From an uncultured Pseudomonadota bacterium (lineage in GTDB: Bacteria; Babelota; Babeliae; Babelales; CAIQNR01), in the NCBI GenBank assembly GCA_964433415.1, contig CAYSQM010000005.1:10449-74448 (forward strand): DNA of 64,000 nucleotides, written 5' to 3'. This document shows, one piece after another, positions 2,343 through 64,000 of the stretch. Both the position numbers and the translations under genes were made by a program. The notes beneath the pieces were generated by a model. The model had not been told where the DNA came from, did no database searches, and saw only the letters and a list, made by a program, of their open reading frames with translations. The first letter of the stretch is position 1. The number at the start of each line of letters is the position of its first letter.

Positions 2343-2804
2343 ATGGCTAAACATGTTGGCGTTAAGTTACCAGAAGATTTAGTAAATATTCTTAAAGCAG
2401 GAAAAACTGTTGGCGTTTTGGCAACCTTTTCAGAAAAAGGATTACCACATACAACACCTATTCAGTGTATCTATCCAAAGGGACTTGAAAGTATTTTAAT
2501 TTCTATTCATAAAGATCATACTGGCTATCATAATATGGTATGGCAAAAAAAAGTTATGATCTGTTTTCTGGATGAAGGTAATGTTGCATACAGTGTTCTT
2601 GGCCGTGCTGGTGTTGTTCGTGCACCTTCAAATGTTCATCCATTGATCAATGTTGTGCGTATTGATATTATCGATATTAAAAGTGATAGATCGGTCCTTA
2701 GTCGTGTAGAATCTGGTGTGCGCTGGAGTTATACTTCATGGGAAGCTGAAGAGCTGTCGAAAAGTTTATTAAATGAGTTGAAAGAGCTTGCTCAGACGCT
2801 CTAA
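2343..2804 (+). CDS. pyridoxamine 5'-phosphate oxidase-like (FMN-binding split-barrel) family protein
   Basis: 153 aa. The pattern VGVLATFSEKGLPHTTPI ... VMICFLDEGN ... VLGRAGVV resembles the PNPOx-like fold signature. A GGAG-type RBS lies upstream. Confidence 0.45.
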   Translation: MAKHVGVKLPEDLVNILKAGKTVGVLATFSEKGLPHTTPIQCIYPKGLESILISIHKDHTGYHNMVWQKKVMICFLDEGNVAYSVLGRAGVVRAPSNVHPLINVVRIDIIDIKSDRSVLSRVESGVRWSYTSWEAEELSKSLLNELKELAQTL

Positions 2805-2828: not shown

Positions 2829-4385
2829 ATGAAGAAGCAAACAAGTTTATTTTTGACAATAATTAGTCTGTGGGGTATCCAGGTACAACTAATGGTTGCT
2901 CCACCAGCTGATTTTTCTACATCAGCTGAGCGCAATAATACCTCTCTTAAAACATCTGAAAATAATCAAGGTCCTCGATCAGAAGGGGAACATTCTTCTT
3001 TTGGGCAACGTGTAAAACCAGCAAAAGAAACTGCTGAAGAAATTAACGAAGAAGCTTCAGAGCAGGTAATACAAGTTGATAAAAAATCACATCATTCAGT
3101 GACCAGTGGTATTGATTTTGATGATAAAGAAGAAGCGGAAAATCTAGGTGTTATTGATACAAGCGACTCAACTTCTGGCGGTAATTGGCTACTTAAACGT
3201 ATTTGGGGTGAAAAAACGGAAGATGTTTTTAGCCAAATTAAAGATGCAGTTAAGAAAATAATGGAAATGCGTATAGCATTTTTTAATGAGCGAAATGATA
3301 TTGATAAAAAATTTGATCAATTTTATCAACAACTTGGATTTGAGCAAGGCTCATTTGAAGATATTTTAAATTTTGCACTTGAAGTCTATGATAAAGCAAA
3401 ACAAAATGGTCTTTCTGAAAAAGAAAGAATTTTTTACCAAGCTATTCAAGAAAAACAATCAAAGATTGAGCAATTAAAAAAAGATGTTGAAGCGATTATT
3501 GTTCTTGATGGAAAAATTAATGACGCGCTTGATGTTTTATTAAAGCAAATTGATTTGTCTAATAAATATGAAGATCAGGCTTGGGAAAATTTTCGAGATA
3601 TTTTACGTGAATTGAATGATAAAGAAGCGCGTATTAAATATTACGAAACGAAAGGCATTTTAGATGATGTTAATAAAATAGCTCTTTATTTGTCTGGCCC
3701 ATTTAGTCAATATTTTTCTCAATCAACACAAAGCGCAAAAGAACATATGAAAAATATTTTATCTCAAACTGATCTTTTGAAAAAAGATGGTGTTGATTTA
3801 AAAAAAGAAGCTAATTTATTAGAGAAAGAAGATGAAGAAGCTACTCAAAAAGCATTTCAGGAAAAAGTAGAAGAACAAAAAGAACAAAAAGAAAAAGCAA
3901 TGGCAGCAAAGAATAAGCCAGTCATTGTTGAAAAAGAGGCTTGGTGGTCTGTGGTTCCAAATTTTTTTGTAACTCTTTATAAAAAAAGTATTGAAGGCGT
4001 TATGAGTCTTTTTGGTGGTAATAAGAAAGCTGTACAAATAAAATCAATAGAAAAAAAAGAGCAGGCTAGAGATCAGTTAAAAGTAGTAAAAAAAGAGACT
4101 AGTTTTAAGCGAACTTTTGGCGGTTGGTTGAATAAAAGTGCTGAGTTTTTTGTGTCAATGTATCATAGAATTATTGATATATTCATGAATTTTTTTGGTG
4201 GAAATAAAAAAACTGATACAGCAAAATTTATGCCAAAAAAAATAGTAGAAATGCAAACTCATCAACCTTCTATGCCTGAAAAAGAGATGGAACAAAAGAT
4301 GCAGTCAAAGATTGTGAAACATGCAATTGAAGATGAAAGTATGCAGCAAAGTGCGCATATAACTACAGAAGCAATAAAGCATTAA
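2829..4385 (+). CDS. hypothetical secreted coiled-coil protein with an internal C-terminal repeat
   Basis: The preferred start is ATG 2829 (MKKQTSLFLTIISLW..., preceded by GGGGAG) rather than the track start at 2808. It has a signal-peptide-like N-terminus and a K/E-rich helical body. The motif FFV(T/S)xY...FGGNKK occurs twice. Confidence 0.6.
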   Translation: MKKQTSLFLTIISLWGIQVQLMVAPPADFSTSAERNNTSLKTSENNQGPRSEGEHSSFGQRVKPAKETAEEINEEASEQVIQVDKKSHHSVTSGIDFDDKEEAENLGVIDTSDSTSGGNWLLKRIWGEKTEDVFSQIKDAVKKIMEMRIAFFNERNDIDKKFDQFYQQLGFEQGSFEDILNFALEVYDKAKQNGLSEKERIFYQAIQEKQSKIEQLKKDVEAIIVLDGKINDALDVLLKQIDLSNKYEDQAWENFRDILRELNDKEARIKYYETKGILDDVNKIALYLSGPFSQYFSQSTQSAKEHMKNILSQTDLLKKDGVDLKKEANLLEKEDEEATQKAFQEKVEEQKEQKEKAMAAKNKPVIVEKEAWWSVVPNFFVTLYKKSIEGVMSLFGGNKKAVQIKSIEKKEQARDQLKVVKKETSFKRTFGGWLNKSAEFFVSMYHRIIDIFMNFFGGNKKTDTAKFMPKKIVEMQTHQPSMPEKEMEQKMQSKIVKHAIEDESMQQSAHITTEAIKH

Positions 4386-4601: not shown

Positions 4602-6167
4602 ATGATAAGTCTAACATCGCGTCGCGGTGGTTCAATAATTGGTCTTTTGGGATGGATAGCATTTGCTGCTATTGGTACTTATATTGTGTGGCCCCTTAAG
4701 GATCGTCCTCGTAGAGGGATAGATTTAGTTGGCGGTTATTATATTACTTTAAAAGTTAATATAGATGCAGCAGTTAAAGCTGAATTAACTGAAATTATGC
4801 AAGATAATTTAAAGCAACTCTCTGAAGCTGGTTTAGCTGATAATGTTTCTTCTAAAATTGTTGATAATTCATTGATATTTTCTTTTAAAGATTCAGTTGA
4901 TGCAATTGCTGCAGTTGACTTATTAAAATCACGTAGATTATCATTAAAAATAACACAAGAAGCAGATTCAGTTACTTTAGAAATGCAAGCTCCTGAAATG
5001 ATTGCATTAAAAGAGCGTGCGGTAAATGGTAATGTTGAAATTTTGAGAAAAAGATTGAATAGTTTGGGTGTTGCAGAAATTCCGGTATCTCGTCAAGGTG
5101 AAGTAAATATTAGTATTGAATTGCCAGCAGTAGAAGATTCAGCGGCTGCAAAAAAAATGATTGGGACTACTTCTCATTTAGAAATTAAGGCAGTAGAAGC
5201 AGTTGGCGCTACAGAAGATGATCTTCTTGATAAATATGATGGCGTACTTCCTGAAGGAATGATTATTATTCCTAGTGAACGTGAACGAGATGAAAAACGT
5301 TCGCTTTATTATTTGGTGCCAGATTATACAGATTTAACCGGTAAAGATCTGAGAAATGCTTTTGATGGTCTTGGTGGGCAAGCAGGGGCAGAGCCTGTTG
5401 TAAATTTTGAATTTAGTAGTGAAGGTGGTGATAAATTTTATGATTTAACTACTAAAGCTACTGGTAAGCAAGTTGCTATTATTATTGATGGTAAAGTGAT
5501 TTGTGCACCAAGAGTTGCTGCTCCATTAAGAACAAATGGTTATATTCATGGGAATTTTGATCAGGCTTCTGCGCAAAGTCTTGCAACCATGTTGCGCTCA
5601 GGTGCATTTGTTGCTCCAGTGACTTTTGAAGAAGAGCGTCGTATTGGGCCTTCATTGGGTGCTGAGTCGATTCAAAAAGGTGTGTTTGCGTGCCTTATTG
5701 GCTTGCTAGCATTGTTTTTATTTAGTATTATTATTTATAAGGTTTCTGGGTTATTTGCATTTATCGCATTGTTGTATAATTTATTACTTATTCTTTTTGC
5801 AATGTACTGGATTAATGCAACGTTAACACTTCCTGGTATTGCTGGATTAGTATTAACACTTGGTATGGCAATAGATTCTTCTGTATTAATTTACGAACGA
5901 ATTCGTGAAAGTTTAGCAGAGGGTGTAACCTTTAAAAAAGCAGTTGATATAGGTTTTTCAGATGCAATGACTGTTATTCTTGATGGGAATATTACAACGT
6001 TCTTAGCAGGTGTAGTGTTATATAAATTTGGAACAGGTCCTATACAAGGATTTGCAGTTACTTTAATGTTAGGTATAATAGCAACATTAGTGACTGGTCT
6101 TTTCTTTTTGAGATCATTGTTTAATGCAGCCTTTGTATTGTTTAAGGTTGATAAAATAAGTATTTAA
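4602..6167 (+). CDS. secD: protein translocase subunit SecD
   Basis: The start is moved to ATG 4602 (RBS GGGAGAAG) because the track ORF start at 4530 lies inside tRNA-Leu. It has an N-terminal TM, a large periplasmic domain and C-terminal 5-6 TM helices with SecD/RND-like motifs (GPSLG, LPGIAGLVLTLGMAIDSSVLIYERIRE). No secF is adjacent. Confidence 0.85.
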   Translation: MISLTSRRGGSIIGLLGWIAFAAIGTYIVWPLKDRPRRGIDLVGGYYITLKVNIDAAVKAELTEIMQDNLKQLSEAGLADNVSSKIVDNSLIFSFKDSVDAIAAVDLLKSRRLSLKITQEADSVTLEMQAPEMIALKERAVNGNVEILRKRLNSLGVAEIPVSRQGEVNISIELPAVEDSAAAKKMIGTTSHLEIKAVEAVGATEDDLLDKYDGVLPEGMIIIPSERERDEKRSLYYLVPDYTDLTGKDLRNAFDGLGGQAGAEPVVNFEFSSEGGDKFYDLTTKATGKQVAIIIDGKVICAPRVAAPLRTNGYIHGNFDQASAQSLATMLRSGAFVAPVTFEEERRIGPSLGAESIQKGVFACLIGLLALFLFSIIIYKVSGLFAFIALLYNLLLILFAMYWINATLTLPGIAGLVLTLGMAIDSSVLIYERIRESLAEGVTFKKAVDIGFSDAMTVILDGNITTFLAGVVLYKFGTGPIQGFAVTLMLGIIATLVTGLFFLRSLFNAAFVLFKVDKISI

Positions 6168-55257: not shown

Positions 55258-55292
55258 GTGCTCAAATTTTTAATAATAAGTTTAAAATAAAT

Positions 55293-55394
55293 AAGTACGT
55301 GATAAGGTCTACACGCGAGGGTGAGCCAAACGCGAATTCCCAGAGTTTACCCCTCCTGATCCTGCCTTGAAAGGCATAACAAAGACTTTGAATT
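55293..55394 (+). repeat. GC-richer intergenic repeat, copy A
   Basis: The sequence runs AAGTACGTGATAAGG...GAGCCAAACGCGAATTCCC...CCCCTCCTGATCCTGCCTTGAAAGGCATAACAAAGACTTTGAATT. It is alignable with the copies at 56981-57015 (+), 59187-59213 (inverted) and 59397-59561 (+). Confidence 0.7.
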
Positions 55395-55530
55395 ATTTAG
55401 ATTTTTTACAGTTAAATGGATTCAACAGTTACATTACATTAAGTTTTTGGATAACTAGTGAAAATTTATTGACCTTGAATTTATTAATATTTTCTATTTG
55501 TATTCACTAATTAGCTTGTATTTCCCCCTT

Positions 55531-55558
55531 TTGACCATTTGTCTTACTTTGCTAAACT
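55531..55558 (+). promoter_or_regulatory. candidate sigma70-type promoter of paralog 1 (TTGACC-N16-TAAACT)
   Basis: Both hexamers, the 16-nt spacing and the downstream leader of about 85 nt are conserved with the copy at 57107-57134, while the flanking sequence diverges. Confidence 0.4.
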
Positions 55559-55645
55559 TGTTTCATATAAGTACGCAGAGGCTGTGTTGGCTTCTAGGGC
55601 GTGCAAAATGTAAAATGGTTTCCAAAAAATCATATGGAGGAATAT

Positions 55646-56797
55646 ATGAAAAAGAAACAATTAGGTAATCTATTTACTGTAGCATTACTTTTATCAACGC
55701 CGTTATTTGCATCAGAAGATTCAGTGCCAAGACATATTTTAAGAGGAAATGACATTGCCCCTTCTACTCTTCTTTCTAATGCTGATTATTTTTCATTACT
55801 AGCAGATTTTACATTAAATAATATTGAGCATCCTGGTCTTACTTTTGCTAAACAATTTGGTATAAATAAAAAAGAATCTTTTATTAATGCTGCAAGAGCA
55901 CAATTTGCTGTTTTTATGCAAAAAGCTAAAATTAAAGCTGCTATAGCTGCCGGTACTTATGCTGCTTACGATGCAGTAAAAATGGTGCCTGCTGTTAATG
56001 TTGATGACTCTGCAACAATGAAAACTGTTAAATATGCTGGTAAAGCTGTTGTTGGTTCATCTGCTTTTGCAACTCAATTTGCTGCTATTAAGTTCTTAGT
56101 GTCTAATTGGAATGTATTGTTACACCCTATGCAAGATAAAGTAAAAACCGCAAAAGTTCTTGCTGTTGCATTAGCTAATATTGCTTATTACACGCCTCAA
56201 GTTCGTGCTTTAGTAGTTAAAGCTGCGTCTTATATTGATTCAAATGTATTTGTTATTGCTCCTAACATAGCTCCTCAAGTTCAAGGGCCAGTTGTAACTG
56301 AAGATCAAGATGGAGCTTCAACCAGTTCTGATGAATCATCGACTGATGCGGAATATTTTGAAGCTAGAGAAGAAGCAAGTTCTCAAGAAAAAGAAGAGGA
56401 TAGTGGAATACAAGAAGAAGCAAAAGCTATAAGAAACCCAAATGAAATAAAGTTTATTAATGACGCTATTAATGCCTGTGACAAAAGTTCAAATTCACCA
56501 TTAAAAAAACTGTTTTCATCTGCATTATTGTCTTGTAACGATAAAGAATATATTGAAAATTATAAGGCAAGGCTTACTAATATATATGTATTATTAGAAT
56601 TATTACCTGATACATATGCTTCTGAATCAGTTGGTATGCATTATATGGGTACTAGTGAGAAAGTCCGTGCCTTAGTAAATAGTTTGTTAAAACATTATAT
56701 GGTTAATTCATTAACACTAACCGAAGATTGTCCTTCGGATAAGATAATAATTAATACTGAAATTACTAGAATAATTACTGAATTAGAAAACATGTAA
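55646..56797 (+). CDS. hypothetical secreted protein, tandem paralog 1
   Basis: ATG 55646 follows GGAGG and gives MKKKQLGNLFTVALLLSTPLFA. A central block of about 130 aa is about 70% identical by eye to the 57221 paralog (e.g. FLVSNWNVLL.PMQDKVKTAKV.AVAL.N.AYYTPQVRALVVKAASY). This copy has an acidic S/E/D-rich insert. Confidence 0.65.
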   Translation: MKKKQLGNLFTVALLLSTPLFASEDSVPRHILRGNDIAPSTLLSNADYFSLLADFTLNNIEHPGLTFAKQFGINKKESFINAARAQFAVFMQKAKIKAAIAAGTYAAYDAVKMVPAVNVDDSATMKTVKYAGKAVVGSSAFATQFAAIKFLVSNWNVLLHPMQDKVKTAKVLAVALANIAYYTPQVRALVVKAASYIDSNVFVIAPNIAPQVQGPVVTEDQDGASTSSDESSTDAEYFEAREEASSQEKEEDSGIQEEAKAIRNPNEIKFINDAINACDKSSNSPLKKLFSSALLSCNDKEYIENYKARLTNIYVLLELLPDTYASESVGMHYMGTSEKVRALVNSLLKHYMVNSLTLTEDCPSDKIIINTEITRIITELENM

Positions 56798-56848
56798 AAA
56801 ACAAGATAAGTAATTTTATAAGTTATTAATACATCTAGTTAAAGCAAT

Positions 56849-56886
56849 AAAAAAGGCTCATGATTTAGTTCATGGGCCTTTTTTGT
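56849..56886 (+). terminator. rho-independent terminator of paralog 1
   Basis: The hairpin AGGCTCATGA-TTTAGT-TCATGGGCCT is followed by a T-run. Its 5' flank (ATACATCTAGTTAAAGCAATAAAAAAGG) is duplicated at 58340-58396. Confidence 0.65.
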
Positions 56887-56980
56887 ATTTGTAGTATCAT
56901 TTTAATAATAAATTATTCGCATTTTCTTTTAATGCATTATGGACAGTTTAAAAAAACTTGTCATCCAGGCTCTTCTTTAT

Positions 56981-57015
56981 GGTGCCAGTGAAAAGCATAG
57001 CAAAAGACTTCAATT
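56981..57015 (+). repeat. intergenic repeat, partial copy D
   Basis: GGTGCCAGTGAAAAGCATAGCAAAAGACTTCAATT aligns with the 3' part of copy A. Confidence 0.55.
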
Positions 57016-57106
57016 GTAATGTGACGAGTACAAGGCTGCTCATATAAAGCTTAAAACACTTAATAATTTCTCATTGAAACTATTGATAAGCCTGTTTGAC
57101 CCCTCT

Positions 57107-57134
57107 TTGACCAGTTGTTCTTCTCTGCTAAACT
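57107..57134 (+). promoter_or_regulatory. candidate sigma70-type promoter of paralog 2 (TTGACC-N16-TAAACT)
   Basis: This is the conserved counterpart of 55531-55558. Confidence 0.4.
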
Positions 57135-57220
57135 TGTTTCATATCAGTACGTAGAGGCTGTGTAGGCTTCTACAATGTACAGAATGTAAAATGGTTTCCA
57201 AAACTCATATGGAGGAATAT

Positions 57221-58330
57221 ATGGAAAAGAAACAATTGCGTAATGTATTTACTATAGCATTACTTTTATCAACCCCACTATTTGCATCACAAGATGCGGT
57301 TAGTTTGACTCGTGTTCAAGCGGCTAAAGCAGTTGCTGAGCAAAATTTACAAGTTGCTAAAGCAAAAATGCAAGCTGGTCTTGCGGTTGCTAAGCAATTT
57401 GGTATAGACAAAAAAGATGTTTTTGTTGCTGCTTCAAAGGCACAAGCTGCTACTTTTATGCAAAGTCCAAAAGCAAATTCAGCTGCTATAGCTGCTGGTT
57501 TGTATGCTGGTTATGATGCAATGAATATGGTTCCTGCTGTTAATCCTACTGATTCTAGAACTGTTAAAGGTGCTAAAGTTGTTGGTAAAGTTGCTGCTGG
57601 TTCAGTTGCTTTTACGTCTCAATTTGCTGCTGTTCAGTTCTTAGTTTCTAATTGGAACGTATTATTGAACCCTATGCAAGATAAAGTAAAAACTGCAAAA
57701 GTTGTTGCTGTTGCATTAGTTAATCTTGCATATTATACGCCACAAGTTCGTGCTTTAGTAGTTAAAGCTGCTTCTTATGTTGGTTTAAATGCATTTGCTC
57801 TTGGAAGCACTGTAGTTGCTAAGATGCCTGCAATGCTTACATTAAAACGTTCAGCTGTAACTGAAAATATTCCTGTTGTTGCTCAAAATGCTGGTATTGT
57901 ATCTTCTATAGCGTCAAAAGTTTCAGCTGCTGCAAGTACTGTAACTGGTGGTAAAGTTGGTACGTCAACTGCTAAACAAAGACAAGCTCAGTTTATTGCT
58001 GATGCAATTAACGTTCTTCATGAATCTTCTAATTCAGTATTAAAAAACATGTTTAAGGCTTCATTAGACAAGGTTGTCACAACTAACATTTATTTCCGTC
58101 AACAAGGTGCTAATGTTATCCTTAAGGAATCAATATTAAGTAATGTGTTTGCTACAGAAGTAGATCTTGGTATTTTTTATGCAGGTACTTCTGCTAGAGT
58201 CCTTGATTTAGTAAATAAATTGTTAAAATTGTATACAGTTAAGAGATTGAATTTAACAAAAGGTAATCCTGACTATATTAAATATATGAATAGTGAAATT
58301 GATACAATAATTGCTGAATTGCAAAGTTAA
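57221..58330 (+). CDS. hypothetical secreted protein, tandem paralog 2
   Basis: ATG 57221 follows GGAGG and gives MEKKQLRNVFTIALLLSTPLFA. It shares the central block and a C-terminal motif with paralog 1 (F I.DAIN....SSNS.LK..F; LV N.LLK.Y.V..L.LT). Confidence 0.65.
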   Translation: MEKKQLRNVFTIALLLSTPLFASQDAVSLTRVQAAKAVAEQNLQVAKAKMQAGLAVAKQFGIDKKDVFVAASKAQAATFMQSPKANSAAIAAGLYAGYDAMNMVPAVNPTDSRTVKGAKVVGKVAAGSVAFTSQFAAVQFLVSNWNVLLNPMQDKVKTAKVVAVALVNLAYYTPQVRALVVKAASYVGLNAFALGSTVVAKMPAMLTLKRSAVTENIPVVAQNAGIVSSIASKVSAAASTVTGGKVGTSTAKQRQAQFIADAINVLHESSNSVLKNMFKASLDKVVTTNIYFRQQGANVILKESILSNVFATEVDLGIFYAGTSARVLDLVNKLLKLYTVKRLNLTKGNPDYIKYMNSEIDTIIAELQS

Positions 58331-58359
58331 GTAATTAATATACATCTAGTTAAAGCAAT

Positions 58360-58396
58360 AAAAAAGGCCTATGATTTAGTTCATGGGCCTTTTTTG
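58360..58396. terminator. bidirectional terminator shared by paralog 2 (+) and grpE (-)
   Basis: The hairpin AGGCCTATGA-TTTAGT-TCATGGGCCT has an A-run on the left and a T-run on the right. Confidence 0.65.
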
Positions 58397-58418
58397 CGTT
58401 TTTTTGTTTATTATTTTT

Positions 58419-58982
58419 TTATTGTTGTGCGGCTACGCTTACTTTTGAGTGCCTTAAAACTACACCATTACACATAAAACCAGGTTGTAATACCGTAATA
58501 ATATCACCTTCTTGTTTACCTTCTGCTTGAGTTTGCATTACTGCTTCATGCAGTTCTGGGTCAAAAGTGGTGTGTTGTGCAATTGGTGTTACCCCATTCT
58601 TTTTTAGGTAGTCATAAAACATTTTGTGAATTAATTCATACCCTTGAAGGAATTGGTTTAAAGAACTGGATCCCACGCTGGTGCTTTGGATGGCAGTTTG
58701 TTCAGTTAATTCTGTTATGCGCTTTGATTCTTGCATTGCTCTATCAAAGTCATCAACTATAGGGAGCAATTGCAATAAGAGTTCAGCACGTGTTGTTTGT
58801 GTCCATAAAGAACGGTCTTTTTCTACTCGTTTTTTGTAATTCTGAAAATCTGCACCCAAACGAACGAGTTGGTCTTTTGTTTGAGCTAGTTCATCAGCAG
58901 TTGCTTGGCATTCTTCTTGGGTAGTTTCTTCTTTATGAAGTTCATCATAAAGATCTTGTCCATTAAAGTTGTTATCTTCCAT
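58419..58982 (-). CDS. grpE: nucleotide exchange factor GrpE
   Basis: The preferred start gives MEDNNFNG..., preceded by GGGGGA; the track start is a TTG further upstream. It has a coiled-coil N-terminal half (LVRLGADFQNYKKRVEKD) and a C-terminal beta-domain (FDPELHEAV...V.QPGF). Confidence 0.85.
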   Translation of the reverse strand: MEDNNFNGQDLYDELHKEETTQEECQATADELAQTKDQLVRLGADFQNYKKRVEKDRSLWTQTTRAELLLQLLPIVDDFDRAMQESKRITELTEQTAIQSTSVGSSSLNQFLQGYELIHKMFYDYLKKNGVTPIAQHTTFDPELHEAVMQTQAEGKQEGDIITVLQPGFMCNGVVLRHSKVSVAAQQ

Positions 58983-59144
58983 GAGTATCCCCCGATAATT
59001 TTTATTATTTTTATGAGTTTTTATAGATCCCAAGAATAGGGCATTTTCTTTGAATTTTCAATCTACATTAAGAGAAATATGTTTAAAATCCTCATCCAGA
59101 GCAAGCAGTGCAAAGCAATATGAAGAGTAGGGTCCATTTAACGG

Positions 59145-59260
59145 TAAAAAGTCTTCTTAAAAATCATATTAAATTCAATATCTCTTTAATGCCTTTCCAG
59201 GCAGGACCAGGAGGTTTCTTGCCATACGGCTGCGCCATCTCAACCAAAAGAAGCTAGTTT
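59145..59260 (-). repeat. intergenic repeat, inverted copy B
   Basis: The reverse complement of 59187-59213 (CCTCCTGGTCCTGCCTGGAAAGGCATT) matches the copy A core CCTCCTGATCCTGCCTTGAAAGGCATA. The flanks are weakly alignable. Confidence 0.6.
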
Positions 59261-59396
59261 AGATTTCCAGTAAGAAAATTACTGGGTTTTATTTAGCGTG
59301 CCGATTATGCATGGTAATGTTTTCTTTAAAGTCCAGTCTACGGCTTTCCTGGCTCAGAAATTCTGCATATTTATTAACAATTATAAAAGTATGTGT

Positions 59397-59561
59397 AAGT
59401 ACGTAATCAGGTTATCCTGGGAGGGGAAGCCAAAGGCGAATCCAAAAGTAGAGCCGTTCTTGGCGTTTCTTAAGGTGCAGCTTTAAGTGCCCAGATTCAA
59501 AAGAGGGGTGGCAAGACCCCTCTTTGCACTGCCCGTGGAGGGCATTAAAAAGACTTTGATT
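59397..59561 (+). repeat. intergenic repeat, long copy C (about 60 bp extra relative to copy A)
   Basis: The sequence runs AAGTACGTAATCAGG...GAAGCCAAAGGCGAATCC...CTGCCCGTGGAGGGCATTAAAAAGACTTTGATT. The insert contains the hairpin AGAGGGGTGGCAAGACCCCTCT. Confidence 0.7.
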
Positions 59562-59629
59562 AATAAATAGTGTACTTTAAATAGCCCATTGCTTGATGAC
59601 AGAGTACGAAATTTATTATTAAGGCAAAA

Positions 59630-60859
59630 ATGTTTAAAAGAAATCTATTTGAAAAACTGAAAAAACTACTTTCTTGGAGTCCTGTTGTACTTTTAACCGG
59701 TGCGCAAAAAACAGGAAAAACTCTTTTAATAAAAAAAGTATGCCCTCAAGCGCTTTATACCTATATTACTTTTGAAGACCAAGATGTCCTATTATTAGCA
59801 AAAAATGACCCGGAAGCTTTTATAGAAAGTCTTACTAAACCAGTTATTCTAGATAAAATAGAACGTGTGCCAGAACTTTTTTTGCCAATTAAACAAGATG
59901 TTCAAAAAAATCGTCAAAGTCGCATGTATGCACTAGTCAGTTCTGTTGATCTCTTATTAATCCCGGAATTAAGTGACCTGGTTGTTGGTCAAATGGAAAC
60001 TATAGAACTCTTTTCTTTTTCGCAGGCCGAGCGTATTGAAGTAAAAGAAAATTTTATTGAAAACATTTTTAAAGGTATAACGCCAAATGTTGAGTGTGAT
60101 GCCTTACAAGAACAAGAAGATTTGTATAAAAGAATTGCTCTTGGTGGCTATCCTGAACTTATTATTGCACAACAAAAAAATGGTTACTCAATTGTTATAC
60201 CATGGTTTGATGAGTATTTAATGAGCCTTCTAAAAGAGTATGATGCAATTTTATTACGTAAAATTCTTACGTGTCTTGCAGCGCATGCAGGGGACGTTCT
60301 GGTTATTGCTGATCTGGCAAAAGAATTAACTATTTCTGAAGAACTTTTACAACAACAGGTAACATTGTTAGAAGCATTATTTTTAGTGAGTTTTGAACAA
60401 CCATGGTTAGGTAATGTAACTAACTATGAAGAGCAGTATTTGCCAAAGATCTATTTTAATGATACCGGGTTATTGTCCTTTTTATTGGGTATTAATCTTG
60501 AAACTGACTGCATAGAAGAAAGTATATTTGCGCCTTTGCTATTGAAAAATTTTGTTATTTCAGAACTCAAAAAGCAGGTAAGCTGGTCACAAAAACGTGT
60601 GCAAATTTATTATTATAATGTGATAAATGGAAAAAAAGTTGACCTAATAGTTGAAGATTTTCAGGGTAATATAATTGGTATTGTTATTAAAAATAGTAAC
60701 AGTATTTCTTCTGAAGATTTTGAAGGGGTACACTATTTGCAAGAAAATTTTCAAAATAGATTTGTGCAAGGTATTGTTTTATATATTGGACAAGAGTCAG
60801 TGCAGTTTAGTGATAAATTATGTGCGTTGCCTGTTAATGCTTTATGGGCCTTGTCTTGA
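59630..60859 (+). CDS. AAA+ ATPase of the AAA_14/DUF4143 type
   Basis: 409 aa. It has Walker A GAQKTGKT, a Walker B-like VILDKIERVP, and the typical C-terminal DUF4143-like region (YFNDTGLLSFLLG ... K.VDLIVE). Confidence 0.7.
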   Translation: MFKRNLFEKLKKLLSWSPVVLLTGAQKTGKTLLIKKVCPQALYTYITFEDQDVLLLAKNDPEAFIESLTKPVILDKIERVPELFLPIKQDVQKNRQSRMYALVSSVDLLLIPELSDLVVGQMETIELFSFSQAERIEVKENFIENIFKGITPNVECDALQEQEDLYKRIALGGYPELIIAQQKNGYSIVIPWFDEYLMSLLKEYDAILLRKILTCLAAHAGDVLVIADLAKELTISEELLQQQVTLLEALFLVSFEQPWLGNVTNYEEQYLPKIYFNDTGLLSFLLGINLETDCIEESIFAPLLLKNFVISELKKQVSWSQKRVQIYYYNVINGKKVDLIVEDFQGNIIGIVIKNSNSISSEDFEGVHYLQENFQNRFVQGIVLYIGQESVQFSDKLCALPVNALWALS

Positions 60860-61090
60860 TTTTAATTAAATTGTCCTTGATCTCACGGCTTCATTATATT
60901 TCGCCTCTGGATGACGAGTGTTAGTCTTTTTTGTTTGAATAGGTAATATCCCTATGGATGACGAGTTTGGGCATATTTCTTTCTGTGTGATAAAAAAAAC
61001 AAAATAAACTTCTTTACTTTTAAATTTTAATTTTTTAGATCTTATGCAGTAGTTAGAAGTTTTATTAATCACAAAAAAGGGGAAGTCTCT

Positions 61091-62356
61091 ATGAAAAAGA
61101 CGCTCTTTACCAGAGTGACGTTTGTACTTTCATTATTGCTCGTACCAGTGTCAGCTCTTGGCTATCGTTATTCTTATCGAGGTGGGCCATATAATCATGA
61201 ACCACGTTTCGATCGTAATTATCTTTCGACCTTTGACGTTTCTGTTATGGGAGGTTCTGCAAAGAACGGGCATAATGGAAGTGGCACTAAAACGAACGTT
61301 TTAAATATTTATGGCGTTCATAATATTGCTAAATTAGGTCAAAGCGTTCCAGGTTTAAATCCACTTAACGCAATCGATCTTAATTTAATTCAACTTGCTG
61401 CGTTACCTAGTAACGGCAATTTTGGGCAAGTAGTTTTTAACGGTAAGTTTGGTTACTTAGGTGCAAATTTTGGTTTTGTACAAAACTATAAATATGGTTT
61501 TTTCTCTCAAATCAATGTTCCGGTAGAAAATGTTAAAGTAAGCGATATTTCATTTGTTGATCAATCTCCAACAGCAGGTGTGCCTAACATTACTGATCCT
61601 ATTTGGACACAATTTTTAGCTAATTTTGATGCAACATTGAATCGTTTTGGTATTGATAAAGGTAACTTTAGTTATACCAGCGTAGGTGATATTCAAACCT
61701 ATATCGGTTGGACCTATAACAACGATAATTTAAAATCAATCGACTTTTTTGATACTACTATAAAAGTTGGTGTTACTAGTCCAGTAGCAGATCGTCGTGA
61801 TAGATCTAAAGCATTTGCAATACCATTAGGTTACAATGGTCATGGTGGTGTTTCAGTTGATTTTGATGCAGCAATTGGTTTTCTTGATTGGGTAAGTCTT
61901 GGTTGGCATGTTGGTGGATTATTCTTCTTTGACGATATACAAACAGTTCGCATGAAAACTAATAGCTTACAAAGTGGCTATATTAAATTAGCGCAAGGTG
62001 TTGCAAAAGAAAAAATGGGTAATTTATGGGATATCGGCACTTTCTTAAAAGCTGACCATATTGCTGCTGGATTCTCATTTGGTGTTGGATACACTTACAC
62101 AAGCCAAGAAGATACAACATTAGTTCCAGAAGATACGGTTGCCTTTAGTTCTGTAATTGTTAATAGCGATGAAATGCTTAAAGCTTGGAGAAAGCATGTT
62201 ATCAATATTAGTGCAGACTATGACTTTGCAAAAGAAGGACGCTGTTTTAACCCTCGCATAGGTTTGTTCTATAATAGACCAGTTGGCGGTAAACGTATCT
62301 TTACAACAGATATTGTTGGTGGTTCTTTTGGTGCTAATATCACTTGGAATTTTTAA
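61091..62356 (+). CDS. outer-membrane beta-barrel protein (porin/major OMP-like)
   Basis: 421 aa with a signal peptide (VTFVLSLLLVPVSALG). It has alternating-hydrophobicity, G/Y/F-rich strands and a C-terminal beta-signal ending ...GANITWNF (terminal Phe). Confidence 0.65.
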   Translation: MKKTLFTRVTFVLSLLLVPVSALGYRYSYRGGPYNHEPRFDRNYLSTFDVSVMGGSAKNGHNGSGTKTNVLNIYGVHNIAKLGQSVPGLNPLNAIDLNLIQLAALPSNGNFGQVVFNGKFGYLGANFGFVQNYKYGFFSQINVPVENVKVSDISFVDQSPTAGVPNITDPIWTQFLANFDATLNRFGIDKGNFSYTSVGDIQTYIGWTYNNDNLKSIDFFDTTIKVGVTSPVADRRDRSKAFAIPLGYNGHGGVSVDFDAAIGFLDWVSLGWHVGGLFFFDDIQTVRMKTNSLQSGYIKLAQGVAKEKMGNLWDIGTFLKADHIAAGFSFGVGYTYTSQEDTTLVPEDTVAFSSVIVNSDEMLKAWRKHVINISADYDFAKEGRCFNPRIGLFYNRPVGGKRIFTTDIVGGSFGANITWNF

Positions 62357-62392
62357 TATTCACTTAAGATTCAATTCATTAAGGAGTTTTTA

Positions 62393-64000
62393 ATGGAAAA
62401 ACGAACAAAATTGCGATTAGGGCTTCTTCTAAGCACGTTCGTGTGTGTCCCTTCTGCGCAAGCTATTATTTCTTCACTAGATGCTGCCGGTCTTGTAACT
62501 AATGGTACTATGAAAGTTGGTATAACTGGTAGTGTTCTTGATAAAAAAACAGGTGACTTCTATGTTGGTACTGGTGCTGGTCCTGGTTCTGGTGCGTTAG
62601 CTTTGATGGGTGCTACTTGTAGTATTGCTAAATTTTCAGTGCCAACGGGAAGTGTGATAACAGGGACTGCTATTTCATCTGCAGCAGTAAATGATGCTGT
62701 TTCTGCAATGGCAGTTTCAAATCTTACCGCATTACGTTTTGCTTGGTCAAATTCAGCGGGTACCAATATTGATTTTATCAATGTAACTGATGGAATTACT
62801 ACGGGTACTATGCTAGCAGCAGTAACTGATGCTGCCGGTGCTGTTGGTGGTGATATTAAAGGTTTGGCTGTTAATGATACTCATGCGTTTTCTTTAGTTT
62901 CAGCAAATGGTGCGGCTTTTCTTGCCAACAATACTGCTTCAGGTTTGAATTCGCATGCGCTTAATGCTACAACTTTGGTTCCGGCAGCTGCGGCTTCAAC
63001 AACAGTTTTTAGTCTTGCTTCTGGAGTAGCAAATGGCTTAGGTCTTGGTATTGCAGTAACGGCTATTAATCCAACTGCAACGCCAAAAATGGTATATGAT
63101 CCAATATTTGATAAAATATATGTTGGTATTAGTTGCACTTCAGGGGCTTTAAATACTAATGGTGCTCGTTCTTTAATTATAGTAAATAATACCGCTGGAG
63201 CTTTAGCTGGTGTTGCTATTAATGGATCAGCAGATACTGCATGGGCGGATTTTGCTGGGACAGGTACTAGTAATATAGTGGGGGTGCTGAATACAGCGAC
63301 TAATCCTGCAGCTAATATACTTAAGGTAAATTTTATTGATATTATGCATACAAGTACTGGACTTAGTTATTTGATACTTAATGGTGGTATCGCAGCTACT
63401 GATATTAAAAATAATCGAGTATGGGCGTTGCCGTTGGTAACTAAAGGGTTTACTAACGAAGGTACATTTGCAGATACAACAAGTCCTATGTTTAATACGC
63501 AAGCAGCATCTGCTATAACAATGTATACAGAAACAAGTATTCCAGCGATAGTTGGAAATAGTGCGGCACCATGGCAAAATGTTGTTGGTTCAGTACCTTC
63601 TGATATGCATGTTGTTGGGGATACAGTTTATATTTCTAGTGCTACTAATCTTGCTAACACTGATGAAAGCGGAATATTGTATTCACAAGCAATCTTTGGC
63701 GCTGAAGGCAAGATTGTTCGTTGGACACGTTGGGAAAAAGCTGTACCTACAGGAATGGGGACAAATGCAGCAGATGGTTCGATTAATTCATTTGGTGTAG
63801 ATGCTCGTTCAGGAAGAATTTGGTCTGTACCTGAAGATGATGGAACTGCTGCTCGTATAGTACGTATTTCAAGTTGGGCAAATTCTACTGTTGCAACAAC
63901 ATTGCAAGGTGCAGTAGCAGCCGCACTTCCTGAAGGGGTATTTTCAATGTATAACCTTGGTCGTTCTTCTTTTAATTTTGGTGCTGAATCGCAAGGGCGT
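62393..64000 (+). CDS. 5' part (536 codons) of a large secreted G/A/T/N-rich protein; continues beyond the window
   Basis: Not in the ORF track, presumably because it has no in-window stop. ATG 62393 lies 6 nt after AAGGAG. The signal peptide is MEKRTKLRLGLLLSTFVCVPSAQA. I translated the frame by hand and found it open through base 64000. Confidence 0.75.
   Translation, partial: MEKRTKLRLGLLLSTFVCVPSAQAIISSLDAAGLVTNGTMKVGITGSVLDKKTGDFYVGTGAGPGSGALALMGATCSIAKFSVPTGSVITGTAISSAAVNDAVSAMAVSNLTALRFAWSNSAGTNIDFINVTDGITTGTMLAAVTDAAGAVGGDIKGLAVNDTHAFSLVSANGAAFLANNTASGLNSHALNATTLVPAAAASTTVFSLASGVANGLGLGIAVTAINPTATPKMVYDPIFDKIYVGISCTSGALNTNGARSLIIVNNTAGALAGVAINGSADTAWADFAGTGTSNIVGVLNTATNPAANILKVNFIDIMHTSTGLSYLILNGGIAATDIKNNRVWALPLVTKGFTNEGTFADTTSPMFNTQAASAITMYTETSIPAIVGNSAAPWQNVVGSVPSDMHVVGDTVYISSATNLANTDESGILYSQAIFGAEGKIVRWTRWEKAVPTGMGTNAADGSINSFGVDARSGRIWSVPEDDGTAARIVRISSWANSTVATTLQGAVAAALPEGVFSMYNLGRSSFNFGAESQGR

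Follow-up and report, generated by a model that had tools for sequence, protein, structure and literature searches.

Composite spacer units and a dispersed two-box repeat around grpE in a Babeliales genome

Genes and spacer units at the grpE locus

The window analysed here is a stretch of 64,000 nt (C5:10449-74448) from the genome of an uncultured parasitic bacterium of the Babeliales (850 kb, 33% G+C, 8 contigs), and our subject is a set of four intergenic segments around grpE, which we call units A, B, C and D, together with m2, a short two-box repeat found beside them. The locus reads, in order, a secreted-protein gene with its own terminator (54442-55185), unit A, secreted-protein cassette 1 with its terminator (55646-56797), unit B, cassette 2 (57221-58330), whose terminator is common to the convergent grpE gene (58419-58982, minus strand), unit C on the minus strand, unit D, an AAA-ATPase gene with AAA_14 and DUF4143 domains (59630-60859, plus strand) and a gene for an outer-membrane-protein (OMP)-like product (61091-62356). 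Positions 52419-64000 were 100% identical to Logan contigs from three runs, and because these three independent assemblies agree completely, the arrangement of the units is not an assembly artefact. DNA of this organism is present in the runs SRR13608704, SRR13608705 and SRR13608733. An earlier note on this DNA had described the four segments as copies of one G+C-richer core; all four lie where it placed them and in the orientation it gave, and each is intergenic and directed at the next start codon.

The similarity of the units was assessed by local alignment against 500 dinucleotide shuffles. The likeness proposed for all four was borne out for A, C and D, with z scores of 17.5 (A-C), 11.4 (A-D) and 10.6 (C-D) that none of the 500 shuffles reached, and in a weaker yet above-chance form for A-B (z 5.4, 0/500), but B-C and B-D stayed at chance level (z 1.4-1.6). 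The higher G+C content likewise holds for A (0.45) and D (0.47), compared with 0.33 for the window and 0.23-0.36 for other spacers, but is lower in C as a whole (0.385) and in B (0.39). The closest relative is a 9-kb contig, L026/L107 (RGPR01000075.1, hereafter L026), which has the same gene order and an OMP with 90% amino-acid identity; the record is labelled Gammaproteobacteria, but the contig is Babeliales-like and was probably mis-binned in a mixed bin of 2.1 Mb. Because L026 carries the segment of D that had been taken for a 60-bp insert, D contains no insert, and A and C derive by deletion from a full unit like those in D and L026. Pairwise identity was 80% for C and L026 (200 aligned columns), 79% for D and L026, 78% for A and C and 76% for A and D, and A, a mosaic, resembles D in its 5' part (76%) and C in its 3' part (78% overall and more in the core). 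By these alignments A, C and D are homologous, and B is a weak, heavily deleted remnant.

The four units are local paralogous copies of a single non-coding composite unit of about 180-290 nt, whose full form is represented by D and the L026 copy. This full form starts with a G+C-richer 5' part, followed by two internal hairpins and a terminator-like stem-loop of 10-11 bp flanked by an A-run and a T-run, and continues with a 5-bp hairpin (4-5-nt loop), an AT-rich linker and a copy of m2. Unit D (59389-59566, plus strand) is the sole full-length copy in the window, and comprises a 5' core from 59397, a long hairpin (59429-59464), a CTTAA..TTAAG hairpin (59469-59487), the terminator-like hairpin AAAGAGGGGT-GGCAAG-ACCCCTCTTT (59500-59525), the small hairpin TGCCC-GTGGA-GGGCA (59530-59544) and AAAGACTTTGATT (59549-59561). 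Unit C (59141-59275, minus strand) is the orthologue of the L026 element and spans 59275-59082 when its m2 is included; an internal deletion of about 75 nt, bounded by TGGCGAG and TGGCAAT as short direct repeats, has left it with neither the middle hairpin nor the terminator's 5' half, and a similar stretch is missing from A. The small hairpin of C, TGCCT-GGAA-AGGCA, is at 59190-59203, and homology between C and L026 extends upstream to about 59330. Unit A (55285-55464, plus strand), in which the middle part is missing together with the terminator hairpin's 5' half, consists of a D-like 5' core (55293-55345, plus strand), the small hairpin TGCCT-TGAA-AGGCA (55363-55376), AAAGACTTTGAATT (55381-55394), an AT-rich linker and a decayed long-form m2 (55412-55464, plus strand; 12.2 bits, E 8e-4). 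Unit B (56969-57033, plus strand) retains about 65 nt, with a decayed small hairpin (56983-56997), AAAGACTTCAATTG (57003-57016) and a weak remnant of the m2 3' box, TGACGAGTACAAG (57022-57033). Before B stands a lone m2 3' box, CTGGATGACAAGT (56955-56968, minus strand), which is weak on its own (E 0.054 in a 16-kb search) and forms the left part of the alignment that the earlier note had made with a fragment at 59090-59120.

Judging from the aligned copies, two stems retain their pairing through compensatory changes. The small hairpin has the stem TGCCT/AGGCA in A and C, TGCCC/GGGCA in D and TGTCT/AGACA in L026, so that 93% of cells are paired and both sides have changed in two of the five pairs, and the terminator-like stem is GGGGT/ACCCC in D versus GGGTT/AACCC in L026. 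RNAalifold, which had been suggested as a check, also kept the small hairpin but nothing else, and the 5' part has no conserved fold; folds of single sequences were unremarkable, with only D reaching a z score of -2.2, equal on both strands. The central hairpin of D and L026 resembles bidirectional Rho-independent terminators in its G+C-cored stem of 10-11 bp with an A-run before and a T-run after, and the hairpin of L026 was called a terminator on both strands in a terminator scan. Unlike such terminators, the T-run of D is short and interrupted, and half of the stem is deleted in A and C. In L026 the unit is preceded, at a distance of about 10 nt, by a promoter-like sequence, TTGTCG-17-CATAAT, which together with the terminator frames about 180 nt. 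The two cassettes have their own conserved promoter-like sequence, TTGACC-16-TAAACT, downstream of A and B (55531 and 57107), and promoter-like sites for grpE lie within the ancestral 99 nt beside its start; promoter-like sites in the region are no commoner than in shuffles. The motif AAGTACG, which had been noticed in the cassette leaders, occurs there at chance level (z 0.6-1.5) and 78 times across the genome, and was dropped as a common leader motif.

Neither short-word BLAST nor nhmmer profiles of the 3' core (A-D) and the 5' core (A and D) found a further copy of the core in the 850-kb genome. In the relative's bin only the copy at the L026 locus and an adjoining fragment were found. In the search with Rfam covariance models, tRNAs alone reached the gathering score in the window, and A-D had no match; because there is neither another genome copy nor an Rfam match, the core is not a dispersed family. 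At E values up to 10 (55100-59700) there were terminator-like matches at the cassette terminators and one inside a cassette gene, none of which overlapped A-D. A cobalamin riboswitch, SRP RNA, 6S RNA, RNase P RNA, 5S rRNA and domain V of a group II intron had been considered by eye and were dropped after the Rfam search. As a DNA query against 40 relatives, D gave only short AT-rich matches at chance level, and a metagenome scan with the OMP protein returned only relatives of about 50% identity, which are too distant to be useful. Inspection of the borders of A, C and D for the terminal inverted repeats and target-site duplications of a mobile element revealed none; the borders of the copies match m2 ends and the borders of the cassette duplication. 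A relic of the 3' end of a DUF4143 ATPase gene (its last ~50 nt; 56898-56950, plus strand) lies between the terminator of cassette 1 and B, and is 78% identical to 60803-60847 of the ATPase gene (z 9.6, none of 500 shuffles as high), which points to further duplication and deletion at the locus.

The m2 repeat

Reading of the L026 contig revealed m2 behind each unit. The repeat is 35-60 nt long and consists of two boxes, CCTGGATCCCACGC and (G)CTCTGGATGACGAGTG, separated by 4 variable nt in the short form and by 12-23 in the long form, and copies or remnants of it adjoin A, B and C. The genome holds 22 copies by nhmmer (E < 0.01) and 24 by a sequence-only covariance model (E <= 0.01), distributed over all eight contigs. 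The best-scoring copy of the window (60869-60924, plus strand; 42.8 bits, E 2e-13) is followed by a lone 3' box (60953-60969, plus strand; 7.9 bits), and another copy lies upstream of grpE (59082-59140, minus strand; 24.8 bits, E 9e-8); the best-scoring copy and the copy upstream of grpE are the right and left brackets of the inverted segment described below. The copy upstream of grpE contains the fragment at 59090-59120, whose reported likeness to 56961-56997 is real, since both are minus-strand m2 3' boxes (in 59082-59140 and at 56955-56968). The direct repeat TGGATGACGAGT upstream of the OMP gene (60908-60919 and 60955-60966) represents the 3' boxes of the full and the truncated m2, and in the m2 of the glyQS-trkH spacer (C7:29506-29551) the 5' box is replaced, with ACACTCGTCAT...ATGACGAGTGT forming a perfect 11-bp inverted repeat. 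One repeat family accounts for the 59090-59120 fragment, for the TGGATGACGAGT pair and probably for the inverted repeat in the trkH leader. Copies in spacers are mostly sense to the flanking genes and sometimes lie at gene ends with a T-run after them. Because the flanking genes share no function, and convergent genes enclose some of the copies, m2 is not a regulon motif.

Copies of m2 also occur within protein-coding genes. A short-form m2-like sequence of 37 nt lies inside the frame of grpE (58660-58696, plus strand, antisense to grpE; 15.5 bits, E 7.6e-5, with the covariance-model hit at 58660-58694; nhmmer E 0.0018), and coincides with a 13-residue insertion (around ...TEQTAIQSTSVG...) that is absent from 13 other Babeliales GrpE proteins. 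A long-form copy (C2:60702-60758, sense) lies in a YfiH/PgeF-like gene (C2:60485-61264) as an insertion of 19 residues (57 nt), which 13 homologues from related genomes do not have. On sequence evidence of this kind, m2 is a formerly mobile repeat. Three of its sites could be compared with the sister genome and all three are occupied in both, and hence the family is old and now largely static. Two more copies were seen within open reading frames, one in the C-terminal tail of a double Ddl-like protein (C3:63712-63766) and one just past the signal peptide of a secreted protein (C8:10229-10268).

Pairing within m2 in this genome amounts to a 4-bp ATCC/GGAT helix and one helix of 2-3 bp, the second of which covaries (GCC/GGC and GGC/GCC, and GGCGC/GCGCC in the related genome G014). 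A conserved RNA fold beyond these 4 + 3 bp was considered and set aside for want of consistent covariation. A promoter of the sigma-32 type (CTTGAAA ... CCCCAT-like) over the small hairpin and m2 was also rejected, because its elements are wrongly and variably spaced and no heat-shock theme links the genes downstream. Similarly, a sigma-54 promoter would need a GG-GC spacing of 10 nt, and that in m2 is 12 nt or variable, and a small peptide read from the ATG of GGATGAC lacks a ribosome-binding site and has its frame broken by indels. The exact m2 motif is absent from 40 relatives. With the m2 model, four further genomes of this family yielded related palindromes, and a clear two-helix palindrome of m2 type is found only in the relatives G014, G009 and G005. 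In G014, which belongs to a different genus, the near-identical copies of CCTGGATCCTCACGGCGCTTGGATCGCGCCTCAGGATGACGAG number at least 34 (loci L116-L123), and many form inverted pairs spaced about 180 nt in the manner of MITEs (miniature transposable elements with inverted repeats); these palindromes look like a recently active relative of m2. One pair in G014 flanks a small GIY-YIG nuclease gene (L123), and no gene like it is present in this genome. In another Babeliales metagenome-assembled genome (L023), an inverted m2-like pair lies directly downstream of grpE, at 2392-2439 (minus strand) and 2564-2612 (plus strand).

In-frame selfish repeats in housekeeping genes are a textbook oddity of Rickettsia. 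The Rickettsia palindromic elements (RPEs) are dispersed repeats of ~100-150 nt that form in-frame insertions in unrelated genes (PMC10969869). Like RPEs, m2 is a short non-coding repeat dispersed in the reduced genome of an obligate intracellular bacterium, and it occurs both in spacers and in-frame in housekeeping genes (GrpE and YfiH-like), where the inserts are multiples of three that leave the frame intact and add a peptide. Unlike RPEs, it measures 35-60 nt rather than ~100-150 nt, has a weak palindrome in this genome and belongs to the phylum Dependentiae. Hence m2 behaves like an RPE and is not a member of the described Rickettsia RPE family, and the long unit differs from RPEs in not being dispersed. 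The conserved end boxes, variable middle and spacer location of m2 recall pneumococcal BOX elements (boxA-boxB(n)-boxC), repetitive extragenic palindromes (REPs) and bacterial interspersed mosaic elements (BIMEs), enterobacterial repetitive intergenic consensus (ERIC) sequences and Correia elements, as do its inverted copies as substrates for rearrangement. In contrast to these elements and to MITEs, m2 has a low copy number (about 24), and no terminal inverted repeats or target-site duplications were seen. REP/BIME elements are palindromes of 20-40 nt that bear a tag, GTAG or CGTC, and are served by a cognate RAYT transposase; the m2 consensus has no visible tag of either kind, and no cognate transposase was identified, RAYT (PF01797) not having been searched for. 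The presence of m2 in Dependentiae (TM6), RPE-like yet unrelated and much shorter, suggests that the phenomenon recurs in the reduced genomes of amoeba-dwelling intracellular bacteria.

The ATPase segment between the OMP gene and grpE

In at least 18 other Babeliales loci the OMP gene and grpE are direct divergent neighbours, with neither m2 nor a unit between them, and the ATPase segment is therefore an insertion between genes that were ancestrally adjacent. An ATPase gene in this position is found only in this genome and in L026. Among PADLOC families, its product matches the candidate defence family PDC-S01 (E 4e-98), and homologues, with 23-29% identity, are patchy within the bacterial family, being present in 7 of 16 genomes. 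The inserted segment is bracketed, here and in L026, by inverted m2 copies with their 3' boxes pointing outward, and the orientation of the interior in this genome is opposite to that in L026. Moreover, L026 has one long unit at the same locus, which faces the OMP gene rather than grpE, and no D-like unit accompanies the L026 ATPase gene. The simplest cause would be homologous recombination between the inverted m2 copies that flipped the ATPase segment, and from this comparison of sequences m2 appears to have driven rearrangements around grpE. The locus thus offers a concrete case of repeats shaping a genome, in which a candidate defence-gene segment was inserted into a conserved OMP-grpE pair and is flipped between sister genomes. 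The ATPase gene with m2 was also considered as a general mobile cassette and rejected, because ATPase homologues in other genomes of the family have no m2 nearby. The unit itself is confined to lineage-specific accessory DNA, namely the ATPase segment between the OMP gene and grpE and the neighbouring secreted-protein cassettes.

Readings of the spacer units

The reading that we favour, for which we put the chances at about even, is that A-D are locally duplicated and rearranged accessory spacer DNA with terminator-like structures, and not a leader that co-regulates genes with grpE. The copies would have arisen by local segmental duplication, by recombination between repeated modules and by slippage deletions, and the unit would neither have spread by transposition nor be a conserved regulatory leader. 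Structures that are kept by compensation may punctuate transcription where divergent or tandem genes are tightly packed, whether as a bidirectional terminator, an insulator or a hairpin that protects RNA ends. By itself, the four-copy family would then be ordinary local duplication debris. Several observations weigh against this reading. The hairpin of D at 59500-59525 was not called a terminator by the scan, and its T-run is weak as well as short and interrupted. The identity of the spacer unit to L026 (79-80%) is higher than that of the ATPase gene (67-69% at the DNA level), which together with the compensatory changes hints at a function of the sequence beyond punctuation. After D there is a possible m2 remnant (59570-59615), which had no statistical support in the m2 model scan. 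Because ATPase homologues in other genomes of the family have no adjoining m2, the m2 bracket may also be coincidental, and a single close relative is too few to give the rearrangements an order or a direction.

We regard as unlikely, though deserving real weight, that the full-length units in D and L026 are small-RNA genes or cis-acting attenuators, with a weak promoter, a structured G+C-rich RNA of ~130-180 nt and an intrinsic terminator, A-C being pseudogene copies. The G+C-rich islands within a 33% G+C genome, the compensatory changes in two stems and the 79-80% identity to the relative in non-coding DNA are in line with this, as are the promoter-like site and the terminator called on both strands in L026. 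However, the -35 of that promoter-like site is not conserved in C, and three of the four copies in the window have no terminator, while D has a weak U-tract and no terminator call. The fold of D is better than that of shuffled sequence (z -2.2), but its z score is the same on both strands; no Rfam family was found even at E 10, and the 5' halves of D and of L026/C can barely be aligned and have no common fold; RNAalifold retains the small hairpin only. For remnants of an ncRNA gene family, which the earlier note had also listed, the evidence is divided, with the two compensated hairpins and the promoter-like site and terminator of L026 on one side, and the missing Rfam match and the lack of a conserved 5' fold on the other.

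The suggestion that MITE-like ends mediated local rearrangement has proved partly right, in that a dispersed, once-mobile palindromic repeat, m2, stands at the 3' end of the units and inverted m2 copies flank the flipped segment, but the 35-100-nt core is locus-restricted and neither terminal inverted repeats nor target-site duplications were seen. A stronger version, in which the long unit is a full-length non-autonomous mobile element, the scattered m2 copies its truncated derivatives and the local copies products of transposition, seems to us decidedly improbable. Every long unit does end in m2 or an m2 remnant, m2 was mobile, and the more than 30 near-identical m2-like palindromes of G014, arranged as inverted pairs, are MITE-like. 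Against it, no long unit occurs outside the locus in either genome, unit borders lack the terminal repeats and target-site duplications that were looked for, and the borders of the copies coincide with those of the tandem cassette duplication. Least credible of all is joint regulation of the cassettes, grpE and the ATPase gene by a common promoter or 5'-leader module, although all copies are directed at the next start codon, and in A and D the small hairpin is followed by TTGAAT/TTGATT with a -10-like hexamer 16-18 nt downstream (seen by eye, one of them also in the promoter scan). The association with particular genes is not kept in L026, where the unit faces the OMP gene, at least 18 other Babeliales OMP-grpE loci have no element at grpE, and the cassettes and grpE have promoter-like sites of their own, in a region where such sites are no commoner than in shuffles. 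Furthermore, the CIRCE/HrcA heat-shock element, an inverted repeat of chaperone gene upstream regions (TTAGCACTC-N9-GAGTGCTAA), had no match in the window with up to 3 mismatches allowed, and the neighbours of m2 share no theme, so that co-regulation with grpE, which the earlier note had put forward, is not upheld.

To one further idea we give only a very small chance: the intact units in D and L026 could encode a structured RNA of ~130-180 nt that acts as a regulatory or partner RNA of the PDC-S01 AAA-ATPase/DUF4143 cassette, the whole cassette being a flip-prone, repeat-bracketed mobile module of Dependentiae.

A different repeat of ~35 nt (CTTTGCCTTAAGCAAACCCCTGTAGACTGTTTGTG-like) was observed three times around the ATPase gene of L026, at 3075-3165 and 4745-4780, and the window has a weak counterpart of it at ~59340-59365.

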